Shown: positions 32,606 to 35,757, counted from the first letter of the stretch. The stretch: DNA of 49,107 nt from Alphaproteobacteria bacterium (GCA_028696805.1 JAQVGI010000001.1:1-49107); one strand, 5' to 3'. Notes: generated by a model not told the origin, from the sequence alone. Translations and numbers: made by a program.

Positions 32606-34744
32606 TCAATTCAGCTGAATCTCATCCAAAACCGCATCCGCCGGATGGACGATGTCGTCCGGAATGTTGGGCGCGGGCTTCATCGCCGCCAGCTTTTGAT
32701 ACGCCGGATTCTTGAAATACAGCGGCGTTTCCGCGCGGATGGGCCGGTTGGTCTTGCCGGTATAGAGGACAAGCTGCTTGTCCGCCGCCATCGACATCAC
32801 ACCGGCGCCGCCGACCAGCCCATCCTCTTTATACTGAAAATCATGATCGTGCTTGTAGAAGGATCCGAAAAGCGATCCCTTAGCCTTGTATTTGTGCGTC
32901 ACCTTCGTCACGCTGCCCGTTCCTTTCAGAAGCGCGCCGCGGGTCTGCTCGTTGTTCTGCTGCTTGATGATTTTGACGGCGACCGAGCTTAAAATGATAT
33001 CCTTCGTCTCCTCGCTGTATTTGGCCGAAATCTGGTTCCAATCCTGGATGTTCAGGAAGAACATGTTCTTTTTCATCCGGCCGAAAACCACGCCGTCCGA
33101 AATGCTTTGCAGCGCCGGCATGTGCTGGAACTCGTCCAGCATGAACCCCACCGGATAAGGGCCGCAGCCGCTCTCGCCCGGCCCCGCGTCCGACAAATGC
33201 CCCGCCGCCATGTTGATGAACAACGTGCTGACCAGCAGCGACGACCCCAAGTCCTCATACGGCACGGACATATAGATCGTCACGGGCTTGTAGCGGCCGG
33301 TTTTGTCCTTGACGCCGCGCAGCTGGTCGTAGTTCAAATCGTTGCTGGACGTGCGCTCGCGGATGGCCGCGTTCTTGAAGATGTTGATGCCCGACAGCGC
33401 CATCGAGACGACCGAGCCGCGCTGCTTATCCGGCAGCGCCTCCACCTGGTTCAATTCCAGCAGCGTGCGCCGGCCGTAGCCGTAATACGCCGTTTCCAGG
33501 ACGACCTCCAAAAACAGCTCGTGCCACGGGTCGAACGACCATGCGGACGGGTCGTTCTCCTGCTTGCGGCGGCACAGCTCGGCGCCGAGGTGCGCCTGTT
33601 TCTGCGTAATCATGTCCAGCAGCATCGCAAAGCACGCGTCATGCCCCCGCCACATATCCGGAATGCCGTCCCACTTGCCGATCGGCAGGTAATTGTCCGG
33701 CGCGATGGCGTGCGATTCGGCATTCTTGACGGCTTGCAAAACTTCGGGGAAATCGCGCATGGATTTATAGTAGGACAGCAGGACGGCGTAATCCTCGTCG
33801 TCCAGCGCGTTGTCCTTGACGCGCTGCAAAAAGTAATCGTTGGCGCGCGCCTGGTCGACCTTGCCGCAGATATAGCCGGTCAGCCCCGTCAAACACCCGC
33901 GGCCGGACAAAACCCAATACGGATCCGCCCCCTTGGGCCCGTCCGGAATCAGGAAGTAAATCAGCCCGTCGATGTAGCCTTCGCGCCCTTCGTGCAGCGC
34001 CGGCAGGTTGCCGCCGCCGATGGGGTTCCACGACGGATACCGAACGCCGGCCGCCTTGTCGTCCACCCGCCCCCAGTTGATGACAAACACGGGGCCCAGC
34101 GTTGCGCGGTATCCGCTGGTCAGCCGGGACAATTCGCCTTTCGGATCGTTGACGATCAGGCAGGCGTCGTCCTGCTCGAAAATCGCTGGAATCATCACGC
34201 CGGTCGTCTTGCCGGACCGCGGCGCTCCGATGCACAGGACGGAGCGCGCGTCGGGTAGTTTCAGCTTATGCCCCTTGAAAAACCCGATGAACAGCCCTTT
34301 GCCGTCCAGCAGGCCCATCTTTTTCAAATCCGACAGATCCGCCTCGTGGTCGCCGGCGACCTGCATGATGAAATAATGCGGGTTCTTGACCATCATCCAG
34401 AACAGGTAGAAAACCAACCCGAACGTCGGCACCAATAAACTGCGCCAGATGAAGAAGCTCGCCCATGTCGTGTGCCGCGGCTCGTTCAGCGCGTATTCGG
34501 CCAGCCACCCGCCCCAATCCCGGAAAGGCAGCCACGGCGCGCGCACCATCGCGAGGATGGCGTCGGCGACATACGGAATCAGCGGAGTGTCGAAATGGCG
34601 GCCCAAAAAATACTGAACGGGCGGCAGGAAAAACAGCAGAGCGATCCAGAAGTAAAAAATCCCCAGCACCGCGCGCTTCGCCCACCATTTGACGGCGGCG
34701 CGGCGCGATTCGTAGACTTCTCCGGACCAGTGCAGGTGCAACAT
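32606..34744 (-). CDS. virD4: Type IV secretion coupling protein, VirD4/TraG family (T4CP)
   Basis: 712 aa. N-terminal TM helices. Walker A CIGAPRSGKTTGVMIP followed by LIVNDPKGE (compare VirD4/TraG APTRSGKG...D.KGE). WNPIG (NPL-like). Walker B region VGFMLDEFQHMPAL. Large all-alpha insertion between the NTPase halves. Confidence 0.85.
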   Translation of the reverse strand: MLHLHWSGEVYESRRAAVKWWAKRAVLGIFYFWIALLFFLPPVQYFLGRHFDTPLIPYVADAILAMVRAPWLPFRDWGGWLAEYALNEPRHTTWASFFIWRSLLVPTFGLVFYLFWMMVKNPHYFIMQVAGDHEADLSDLKKMGLLDGKGLFIGFFKGHKLKLPDARSVLCIGAPRSGKTTGVMIPAIFEQDDACLIVNDPKGELSRLTSGYRATLGPVFVINWGRVDDKAAGVRYPSWNPIGGGNLPALHEGREGYIDGLIYFLIPDGPKGADPYWVLSGRGCLTGLTGYICGKVDQARANDYFLQRVKDNALDDEDYAVLLSYYKSMRDFPEVLQAVKNAESHAIAPDNYLPIGKWDGIPDMWRGHDACFAMLLDMITQKQAHLGAELCRRKQENDPSAWSFDPWHELFLEVVLETAYYGYGRRTLLELNQVEALPDKQRGSVVSMALSGINIFKNAAIRERTSSNDLNYDQLRGVKDKTGRYKPVTIYMSVPYEDLGSSLLVSTLFINMAAGHLSDAGPGESGCGPYPVGFMLDEFQHMPALQSISDGVVFGRMKKNMFFLNIQDWNQISAKYSEETKDIILSSVAVKIIKQQNNEQTRGALLKGTGSVTKVTHKYKAKGSLFGSFYKHDHDFQYKEDGLVGGAGVMSMAADKQLVLYTGKTNRPIRAETPLYFKNPAYQKLAAMKPAPNIPDDIVHPADAVLDEIQLN

Positions 34745-34745
34745 G

Positions 34746-35741
34746 TCAGTTCCTCAATTTCGCTTTCCGTTTGAGCGACTGCTTCCGGGACTGCGCGGCC
34801 AGCTTGTGCTGCGGGTTGTCCGACGCGTCGGCGAGCGCGTCCTCGGGGATATCGGCCGCCGGTTTCATGGCAAAGGATTTGAGCGCCGGCTTTGCCGCGG
34901 CGAATTCGTCCTGCTTCACAGGCGGGCGCTTCGGATTTTTCGTCCGAACGGGCGGCAGCGGTTTTTCGGCCTCCTCCCTGGCATAGGCGGCCAGTTCTTT
35001 TTCCTTGCCTTTGACGGCGCGCAGGGTTTCTTCCTTCAACTTTTTCTCCGACAGCTTCGCCGCCCGGTATTGCGTCCGCTGCAACTGGGCCAGGCTCAAC
35101 AAATGCTTCGGATTGATGTAGGCGCCGCGCAGGTTCACCCCTTCCAGAATAAAGGGCGACAGGTCGATGCCCGACAGGTCGACCTGCGACAAATCCAGCA
35201 GCCGCAAATCCAAATGCAGCAGATCCTGCCGCGGCACGCCGCGCAGGTCGATCGCGCCGGATTCTATTCCGGCGACCAAAACCTCCACCGCGGTCAGGTA
35301 TCGCCGCGCGGATTCGTCCAACTGCGCGCCCTTTGTCCGCAGGCCCTTCGCGAACGTGCGCCTGAACCGCGCGCCGCGCAGGTCGCTGCCCGCGAACGAC
35401 GCATCCTCCAACGCGGCGTCCGTGAAATCCGCATCGCGCAGGTCGCAGTTGTCGGCCGTCGTCTTGTAAAAAACCGCCTTGCTGAAATCGGCGCCGGCAA
35501 GCCGTGCGCCGGAAATATCCGCGCCGCGCAGGTTGACGCCCGAAAAGTCCCGCCCCGACAAATCCTTGCCCGCCCGGACATCCGCGACAAGGCGCACCGC
35601 GCGCGCGTCATGCGTGTAATCGTCCATCTCTGACGGAAGCATGAAATCCGCATCCCGGAGCCCCAAGGAAAAACGGGCGATGTCCTCGTCGCTCACTTTG
35701 GTGTCGGCCAGTTTCATTTCGGGACGTTTCAATGCGCTCAT
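34746..35741 (-). CDS. Pentapeptide-repeat protein with basic C-terminal tail
   Basis: 331 aa. Two blocks of A(D/N)LxG-type pentapeptide repeats: LSGRDFSGVNLRGADISGARLAGADFSKAVF...CDLRDADFTDAALEDASFAGSDLRGARF, and LLHLDLRLLDLSQVDLSGIDLSPFILEGVNLRGAYI. A Lys/Glu-rich region follows, then the C-terminus SRKQSLKRKAKLRN. The stop TGA is 1 nt from the virD4-like ATG. Confidence 0.88.
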   Translation of the reverse strand: MSALKRPEMKLADTKVSDEDIARFSLGLRDADFMLPSEMDDYTHDARAVRLVADVRAGKDLSGRDFSGVNLRGADISGARLAGADFSKAVFYKTTADNCDLRDADFTDAALEDASFAGSDLRGARFRRTFAKGLRTKGAQLDESARRYLTAVEVLVAGIESGAIDLRGVPRQDLLHLDLRLLDLSQVDLSGIDLSPFILEGVNLRGAYINPKHLLSLAQLQRTQYRAAKLSEKKLKEETLRAVKGKEKELAAYAREEAEKPLPPVRTKNPKRPPVKQDEFAAAKPALKSFAMKPAADIPEDALADASDNPQHKLAAQSRKQSLKRKAKLRN

Positions 35742-35748
35742 GCCCTCT

Positions 35749-35757
35749 ATTATACCA
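35749..35757 (-). promoter_or_regulatory. Extended -10 element (TGgTATAAT) 7 nt upstream of the pentapeptide gene ATG
   Basis: Minus strand reads tgtggTATAATagagggcATG. The -10 hexamer is perfect, TG sits at -15/-14, and no good -35 is present. Confidence 0.4.

Follow-up and report, generated by a model that had tools for sequence, protein, structure and literature searches.

The window analysed here is a stretch of 49,107 nucleotides from an alphaproteobacterium (GCA_028696805.1, JAQVGI010000001.1:1-49107). It carries on its minus strand two adjacent genes, which encode a pentapeptide-repeat protein (PRP) and an ATPase that resembles the VirD4/TraG coupling proteins (T4CPs) of type IV secretion systems (T4SSs). 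Comparative analysis of the sequences indicates that the pair is a core, vertically inherited chromosomal operon and not part of an island. The two genes are strictly associated and co-diverge, and the ATPase keeps the domains and predicted fold of T4CPs in a region devoid of T4SS genes. With about even confidence, we propose that a domesticated T4CP-like ATPase has in PRP an obligate accessory subunit, either adaptor or regulator. The features of the pair are as follows.

34746..35741, minus strand: PRP, 331 aa (ORF call; Pfam PF00805)
32606..34744, minus strand: VirD4/TraG-family coupling-protein-like ATPase, referred to as T4CP, 712 aa (ORF call; Pfam)
34745..34765, minus strand: PRP-T4CP junction, with the PRP stop TGA, 1 nt and the T4CP ATG
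35742..35775, minus strand: candidate promoter for both genes, in which a T-rich tract precedes an extended -10-like element, TGGTATAAT, whose end lies 7 nt from the PRP ATG

The open reading frames (ORFs) and the TGA C ATG junction are those described in the original prediction, which had the 331-aa gene ending one nucleotide before the 712-aa gene; the far end of its span, 35757, overshoots the PRP start by a trivial 16 nt. The junction reads ...AAATTGAGGAACTGA C ATG, and a GAGGA Shine-Dalgarno sequence for the T4CP lies inside the final PRP codons (Arg-Asn). An AGGA in the last PRP codons, followed by a gap of 1-5 nt, is also present at the related loci L001-L007 and L017-L019, and in close relatives the final PRP codons (AGG AAx) double as the T4CP Shine-Dalgarno. 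Part of the terminal K-N-R-x conservation of PRP is therefore explained by the ribosome-binding site of the second gene. The basic character of the PRP tail spans 20-70 residues and recurs across lineages with unrelated tail sequences.

The PRP start has no Shine-Dalgarno. A TGnTATAAT-type element is located 6-9 nt upstream of it in the window and at L004, L017 and L098 (TG-TATAAT at L098), and less complete -10-like versions precede PRP at L012 and L008, which belong to different neighbourhoods. The putative promoter is absent from the output of a generic sigma-70 scan, which requires a -35 match, and generic prediction of sigma-70 sites and terminators in this region performed no better than on shuffled sequence. 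The promoter-like element suggests that PRP and T4CP share an autonomous mRNA, possibly leaderless or near-leaderless. The GC content at third codon positions (GC3) is 0.82 and 0.79 for the two genes, the same as in core genes.

Over 876 homologues of the T4CP were retrieved in a protein search; in the few cases where a source is named, the label is 'MAG: ... Alphaproteobacteria' (MAG, metagenome-assembled genome). The hosts are uncultured Alphaproteobacteria that form a large group, most of them from the gut. At six genome loci, from ruminant-gut and other MAGs, the T4CP is 56-60% identical to that of the window and is better conserved than AddA at the same loci (48-49%). The order mutL-pgi-lspA, PRP-T4CP, lipoprotein-addA-addB is found in all loci of this set that are long enough to show it. 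In more divergent relatives the pair occupies other chromosomal neighbourhoods, and PRP lies immediately upstream of each of the following T4CPs.

P0070: 48% identity to the window T4CP; neighbourhood obg / rpmF-plsX
P0086: 43% identity; lpxC / recR-ybaB
P0095: 40% identity; M1 peptidase / flavodiiron protein
P0139: 32% identity; rarA-rluD

A metagenome scan added 80 further loci, for the most part from the guts of humans and animals, and the flanks were read over ±10 kb around each homologue. A hidden Markov model (HMM) of the PRP family, built from eleven divergent PRPs, was run on all ORFs of 101 loci. It matched 31 ORFs, all of which (31/31) lie at -4 to +27 nt upstream of a T4CP on the same strand; none was found elsewhere. 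PRP is thus present at 31/31 related loci that include upstream DNA, across eight distinct chromosomal neighbourhoods, and the proposal of a dedicated pair, which the original prediction would have dropped had this synteny failed, is strongly supported; P0130 is at a contig edge and uninformative for the upstream partner. The original prediction had asked whether the same junction recurs in relatives: the exact 1-nt junction is not conserved, and what is kept is the tight spacing. The paired T4CPs extend down to 25% identity to the window protein (25-33% in the distant ones), and the synteny of the pair with lspA-pgi-mutL persists to 33% identity. On contigs of sufficient length neither ORF is interrupted, except at L002, where the T4CP ORF is split in two.

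The taxonomic labels of cluster members were almost uninformative. At one locus, L098 (JGI 3300042659; MDR2901990.1), the T4CP is labelled as belonging to a Lactobacillales MAG. The gene order there is serS ... mutL-pgi-lspA followed by PRP-T4CP, as in the window. Because this synteny is that of the alphaproteobacterial window, mis-binning of the contig is probable.

The pairwise identities of the PRPs follow those of the T4CPs with r = 0.94, a value reached by 0/2000 permutations in a Mantel test. By contrast with canonical T4CPs, no association with secretion genes was detected. No T4SS, relaxase, pilin or integrase family was found in the 49-kb window, in which the 30 other ORFs were compared with Pfam and the region 11.3-14 kb was read by hand; the original prediction had likewise seen no virB, relaxase or pilin gene. 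Homologues of VirB4, VirB9, VirB10 and VirB11 were absent from 1.36 Mb comprising the flanks of 96 loci and the window, when every ORF was searched with phmmer. The queries came from Sphingosinicella plasmid p1: VirB9, VirB10, VirB11, a putative VirB4 (806 aa, with no annotation beyond hypothetical) and three other proteins encoded upstream. The p1 T4CP, used as positive control, was the sole query with matches and retrieved 95 T4CP ORFs.

The T4CP matches the Pfam families PF02534 (T4SS-DNA_transf; 1.9e-42, 146 bits, cut-off 20.1), PF12696 (TraG-D_C; 1.8e-11, 44.5 bits, cut-off 22) and PF10412 (TrwB_AAD_bind; 32.9 bits, cut-off 20.5), which agrees with the domains expected from the sequence. 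The motifs listed in the original prediction are all present: Walker A GAPRSGKTTG (GAPRSGKT, residues 173-180), DPKGE and Walker B FMLDEFQHM (FMLDEF, residues 534-539). The GR..K...Q..Q motif is also intact (FGRMKKNMFFLNIQDWNQ; FGRMKK..Q..Q at residues 554-571). A hydropathy scan gave two transmembrane-like segments, at about residues 22-47 and 97-115, which correspond to the N-terminal helices noted before. An AlphaFold2 (AF2) model computed from a 28-sequence alignment has a confidence (pLDDT) of 82 and a pTM of 0.71, and shows N-terminal membrane helices, a nucleotide-binding domain of alpha/beta type and an extensive all-alpha insertion (about residues 254-465). The C-terminus of the protein is acidic. 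The structures ranked by Foldseek for this model are Helicobacter pylori Cagbeta (8dol; E 2e-17, target-normalised TM-score 0.64-0.66), TrwB (~1e-9), DotL (4e-6) and HerA-type ATPases. With the single T4CP sequence as query no PDB entry was matched at E<0.01; the family profile was needed, and it retrieved Cag5 at 7.5e-13 and TrwB marginally. Profiles, motifs, membrane anchor and modelled fold all indicate that the protein belongs to the T4CP superfamily.

The protein was not assigned to any curated equivalog of the superfamily, such as VirD4, IncP/Ti TraG, F TraD or CD1115, by the NCBIfam cut-offs. All curated T4CP models score far below their thresholds (15-97 bits versus 250-728), the best being CD1115 (97 versus 250), IncP TraG (78 versus 674) and VirD4 (71 versus 728), and the public annotation reads only 'type IV secretory system conjugative DNA transfer family protein'. 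The likeness to Agrobacterium tumefaciens VirD4, R388 TrwB and H. pylori Cagbeta comprises Pfam families, the two N-terminal membrane segments, the Walker A/B and GR..Q motifs and the fold, and extends to the nearest cultured and basal relatives, which are encoded after virB8-9-10-11. The window protein differs from these T4CPs in its low equivalog scores, an identity to plasmid T4CPs of at most 29%, a chromosomal location among core genes, the lack of a linked T4SS or relaxase, the invariable upstream PRP, and the relaxed motifs found in much of its clade.

A table of motifs across the family shows that T4SS-linked T4CPs, and those of a sister clade with a different upstream partner (TM0), are near-invariant at Walker A, Walker B and GR..Q..Q, whereas the motifs of the PRP-linked clade are relaxed, with a Walker B of DD, DN or DG in many lineages. 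The window subclade keeps all catalytic motifs, and the window protein therefore looks like an active ATPase.

Neither the Walker B Glu nor GR..Q..Q survives in the deepest PRP-linked subclade (P0138-P0190, e.g. L016:1457-3823 and L099:9238-11592), and the proteins carry a conserved acidic/aromatic C-terminal motif, DDWWLxE(D/G)AF...NPF. Judging by these losses, the deepest members may be pseudo-ATPases.

PRP matches PF00805 (Pentapeptide; 1.4e-19, 69.7 bits, cut-off 20.2), and a hydropathy scan detected neither a transmembrane segment nor a signal peptide in it. Its architecture, common to all lineages aligned, is the following.

About residues 1-55: N-terminal motif region RPEMK...YFSLG...LPSE, conserved and poorly modelled
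About residues 56-142: beta-helix block 1
Residues 143-161: helix with IExGxIDL
About residues 165-210: beta-helix block 2, LDLRxLDLSxVDLxGxDLS...GVNLxG
Residues 211-259: long charged, coiled-coil-like helices
Residues 260-331: disordered basic tail, Lys/Pro/Glu-rich, ending KRKAKLRN in the window protein

In the AF2 model of PRP, one strand is formed per 5 residues; pLDDT exceeds 90 at about residues 40-140 and falls below 50 for residues 280-331. The top Foldseek matches are all PRP structures, among which MfpA, QnrB1 and AlbG were retrieved with E of 5e-5 to 1e-3. The Lys/Glu-rich end and the tail SRKQSLKRKAKLRN reported in the original prediction are present, with a net charge of +7 over the last 25 residues. 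A basic end is general in the family: the last 20-25 residues have a net charge of +4 to +11 in 9/11 lineages, the exceptions being L099 (+1) and L098 (-4, ending KKKK). The protein is bipolar, with a neutral to acidic core and a last third of pI about 10 in 10/11 lineages. In the window PRP, block 1 has a net charge of +2 (pI 9.0), the core -2 and the whole protein a pI of 9.35; the core is more acidic in other lineages (-2 to -15). The family signal is sharp, with about 45 clusters at 44% identity or more and then a drop to generic repeat similarity. No orthologue was found on plasmids, where matches are at the generic repeat level, and a plasmid origin of PRP was rejected.

PRP shares the right-handed quadrilateral beta-helix of DNA-mimic proteins such as MfpA, Qnr and AlbG. 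It departs from them in that its helix is short and discontinuous, the net charge of the main block is +2, coiled-coil-like helices and a 70-residue basic tail follow, and no gyrase context is found. The Qnr and MfpA models of NCBIfam give 34 bits versus 240 and 32 versus 360, both far below cut-off. Since the main block is positive, the pI is 9.35 and these scores are low, a DNA-mimic role is not supported for the window PRP. Weak NCBIfam matches are to PipB, PipB2 and DotG (3.8e-6). DotG/IcmE of the Legionella Dot/Icm type IVB system is a T4SS component with a pentapeptide-repeat region; it is a VirB10-like, envelope-spanning core subunit of about 1000 residues (NCBIfam profile length 1008). 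PRP, in contrast, is predicted to be cytoplasmic, with no signal peptide, membrane segment or VirB10 domain.

The origin of the ATPase was approached with a quick neighbour-joining (NJ) distance tree, from which gene contexts were predicted first and then checked at the loci. The PRP-linked T4CPs form one clade, whose sister consists of gut sequences with the TM0 partner. Below both are relatives that keep the canonical APPGTGKT, DEF and GRxxK..Q..Q motifs. Inspection of the loci showed PRP upstream of P0132 (33% identity, with the lspA-pgi-mutL synteny of the window), of P0145 (29%, with a 0-nt junction) and of P0128 (36%, 1022 aa). The basal P0136 is encoded directly after virB4 ... virB8, virB9 (CagX), virB10 (TrbI) and virB11, and the closest cultured homologue, 27.6% identical and located on Sphingosinicella plasmid p1, follows virB9-virB10-virB11. 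Because these two relatives sit in virB clusters, the phylogeny indicates that the PRP-linked T4CPs descend from T4SS-linked VirD4-type proteins and are now chromosomal and locally unlinked to a T4SS.

These observations can be accommodated in a model in which the locus would be an autonomous two-gene operon, PRP first and T4CP second, encoding a two-protein machine of the inner membrane. The T4CP-like protein would be a membrane-anchored ATPase derived from VirD4-type proteins of alphaproteobacterial virB systems, having left its T4SS cluster to become a core chromosomal gene; it is probably hexameric, by analogy with TrwB and Cagbeta. PRP would be a fixed cytoplasmic adaptor or regulator docked on the ATPase, probably through its conserved N-terminal motifs and/or its basic, disordered C-terminal third, against the acidic tail or the all-alpha domain of the T4CP. 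In that position it would gate or direct the ATPase activity, in a manner comparable to CagZ on Cagbeta or to the DotL adaptors in Legionella. We prefer an accessory subunit to a receptor encoded with its effector because the constant pairing, the PRP-first polarity, the tight junction and the 1:1 co-divergence are typical of one complex; a role for PRP as DNA mimic or variable effector is less likely than one as a subunit.

The closest parallel is the Cagbeta-CagZ pair, in which a T4CP also has a lineage-specific partner and in which Cagbeta is itself the best sequence and structural match of the window ATPase. CagZ is small and helical, unlike the pentapeptide-repeat beta-helix and long basic tail of PRP, and the gene for Cagbeta belongs to the cag T4SS island. 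With its U-shape CagZ embraces the all-alpha domain of Cagbeta, and this binding blocks both ATPase activity and the assembly of hexamers (PMC9886983). The comparison of CagZ with PRP is drawn by analogy, and homology is not claimed. A search of full-text literature returned no description of a pentapeptide-repeat/T4CP operon or of an orphan T4CP clade; its matches were DotG repeats, Rickettsia cREM-4 and qnr plasmids.

Several points weigh against the subunit model. The pairing of the basic PRP tail with an acidic T4CP tail is a plausible docking mode at which the charges hint: T4CP C-termini are acidic on average in the PRP-linked clade, but the complementarity is modest (the last 40 residues of the window T4CP carry only -2) and, as a trend, it is real but weak, being no stronger than in the sister clade with its different partner. 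The co-divergence is weak evidence for contact, since vertically inherited neighbours co-diverge anyway. The NJ tree has no support values. A basic C-terminus is the classic signal of VirB/D4 substrates, so that PRP could be cargo, and the genomes may hold an unlinked T4SS elsewhere, as in Rickettsiales, which would make the T4CP an ordinary receptor.

Among the alternatives, it is possible, if doubtful, that the PRP-linked T4CP is a (pseudo)ATPase that no longer serves any T4SS and forms with PRP an unrecognised, vertically inherited housekeeping machine of Alphaproteobacteria that would, for example, handle DNA or another polymer at the inner membrane, many members then being nucleotide-binding switches and not motors.

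It appears unlikely that PRP is itself translocated, as an effector or as the first, ancestral substrate of the T4CP, with its basic tail as the secretion signal. An effector encoded with its receptor was one of two readings offered in the original prediction. The disordered, Arg/Lys-rich C-terminus is a feature shared with VirB/D4 substrates such as VirE2, VirF and the Bartonella Beps, and the PRP tail retains its charge, down to the terminal KKKK of L098, despite differing sequences; the T4CP motifs are intact in the window subclade. VirE2, VirF and the Beps are, on the other hand, not known to be encoded ahead of virD4 in a two-gene operon or to be universally co-inherited with it. Rickettsiales offer a precedent for scattered T4SS genes. 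Pentapeptide-repeat effectors exist, as the weak PipB and PipB2 matches recall, and the Rickettsia candidate effector cREM-4 carries a pentapeptide repeat (PMC11077975). Against this, effectors are usually lineage-specific and numerous, whereas PRP is 1:1 with the T4CP clade-wide and co-diverges with it. PRP is also promoter-proximal, with the T4CP ribosome-binding site in its 3' end. The loss of the Walker B Glu and GR..Q in deep members is hard to square with a working translocation motor, and no T4SS gene lies within 10 kb in about 100 loci. The reading is thus weakened by the co-divergence, the position of PRP as first gene and the lost catalytic residues, and retains the tail in its favour.

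We also consider improbable a T4SS-independent role in which the T4CP-derived membrane ATPase would act on DNA or another cytoplasmic polymer, PRP mimicking DNA and so holding the motor off, or tethering nucleic acid by its basic tail, in some chromosome- or envelope-related housekeeping. The absence of T4SS genes from all flanks examined, the core-gene status and the deep vertical inheritance are in line with such a role; the relaxation of the catalytic motifs relative to T4SS-linked relatives suggests a functional shift, and the long, basic, disordered C-terminal third of PRP may bind nucleic acid. DNA-repair genes are found nearby in several neighbourhoods (addAB and mutL; recR, uvrC, udg and rmuC; mutY; rarA), a weak association that may be due to chance. 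The charge of the window beta-helix (block 1 net +2, core net -2) and the low Qnr and MfpA scores argue against mimicry, and a role of the VirD4 family outside T4SSs was not found in the literature searched. The second reading of the original prediction, a DNA mimic as ligand or regulator of the ATPase, for example in conjugation or phage interference, loses ground on the same charge, pI and model scores, and keeps the absence of a linked T4SS on its side. Its anti-phage or anti-plasmid variant was rejected: PADLOC gave no match for either protein, and with native GC3, conserved synteny and vertical inheritance as a core gene pair the locus is not in an island.

That the pair is a functionless leftover from the decay of a conjugative or mobilisable element that had integrated is very improbable and essentially excluded: T4CPs without a T4SS do occur on mobilisable elements (PMC4027160) and the curated T4CP models all score low here, but the ORFs are intact wherever visible (the split at L002 aside), GC3 is native, no relaxase or integrase accompanies the pair, the nearest tRNAs are about 10 kb or more away from it, no plasmid PRP orthologue was found, synteny is deep (to 33% identity) and the T4CP is more conserved than AddA.

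The sister clade comprises T4CPs that are 35-40% identical to that of the window, mostly from human gut, and that are preceded by one or two paralogous membrane proteins (TM0). The long TM0 has an N-terminal transmembrane domain, a disordered middle and a conserved C-terminal GDWLADEERFNDEEPLWFSE domain. The conserved cluster order (L023-L096; e.g. L027:5215-13272, L070:3815-13878 and L014:8841-13334) is a 94-aa transmembrane protein, proteins of ~360 aa and ~480 aa, the short TM0, the long TM0 and the T4CP. Usually 3' of the T4CP are a ~200-350 aa protein with the C-terminus FGG..NL.L...HP.HE.IH (HNH-like?) and a ~145 aa protein with weak SUKH_5 similarity (6.5e-5). The other proteins of these clusters gave no Pfam match, and no virB gene was found within 10 kb. 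By sequence, the last two proteins look like a toxin/immunity pair, which hints that the ancestor of the PRP and TM0 clades handled protein cargo. Another chromosomal orphan T4CP lineage (L102:9503-12790; P0127, 39% identity, canonical motifs) has neither PRP nor virB genes; upstream of it is encoded a 151-aa protein whose N-terminus resembles that of a prepilin (G/ASMFE, then a hydrophobic stretch).

In the window the pair is flanked, as previously noted, by addB/addA on one side and by lspA, pgi and mutL on the other. Other genes are aspS, an OEP-family outer-membrane protein gene, comF-like, lytic transglycosylases, dacC-like, tmk, holB, tatD, tsaD, secB, serS, alr and six tRNAs, of which tRNA-Leu (position 45.6 kb) and tRNA-Ser (9.7 kb) come closest to the pair. 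The longest ORF in the region read by hand (778 aa, 11366-13702, minus strand, GC3 0.63, no Pfam match) was rejected as a shadow ORF; the plus strand holds rlpA-like, D-Ala-D-Ala carboxypeptidase-like (the dacC-like gene) and tmk genes there. A small ORF and a lipoprotein gene lie beside the T4CP, and a few ORFs of low GC and low GC3 (0.35-0.56) stand out from the 60% GC background, probably as small horizontally acquired insertions.

32305-32541, plus strand: 78-aa ORF with one transmembrane segment, between the T4CP and lipoprotein genes and converging on the 3' end of the T4CP gene; the public assembly likewise predicts a gene here; preceded by the best sigma-70-like site of the region (TTGACA-16-TATACT with TG, 11/12 matches; feature span 32252-32541)
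31492-32217, plus strand: 241-aa lipoprotein, signal peptide ending LLAGC, weak alpha/beta-hydrolase similarity, overlapping the addA stop
2078-2635, minus strand: low-GC ORF, MORN-repeat protein by tRNA-Val
42252-42917, minus strand: low-GC ORF with no Pfam match
47203-47757, minus strand: low-GC ORF, DUF2441 protein by tRNA-Gln
16762-18914, plus strand: two to three low-GC ORFs with no Pfam match

The lipoprotein is kept beside addA at L001, L004, L017 and L019, but is absent from the other PRP-T4CP neighbourhoods and therefore lies outside the module.

Current understanding of T4CPs is almost wholly that of substrate receptors for conjugative and effector T4SSs, and genome mining uses them as markers of mobile elements; members of the present clade would consequently be miscounted as 'conjugation genes' in gut metagenomes. 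To our knowledge, no T4SS-independent role has been described for a VirD4-family protein, and if it is true that no T4SS exists in these genomes, the pair would be the first such case known to us. It represents a natural system for the regulation or adaptation of a T4CP by a fixed partner, and the pentapeptide-repeat proteins, which mostly lack an assigned function, would gain a concrete and testable binding partner.

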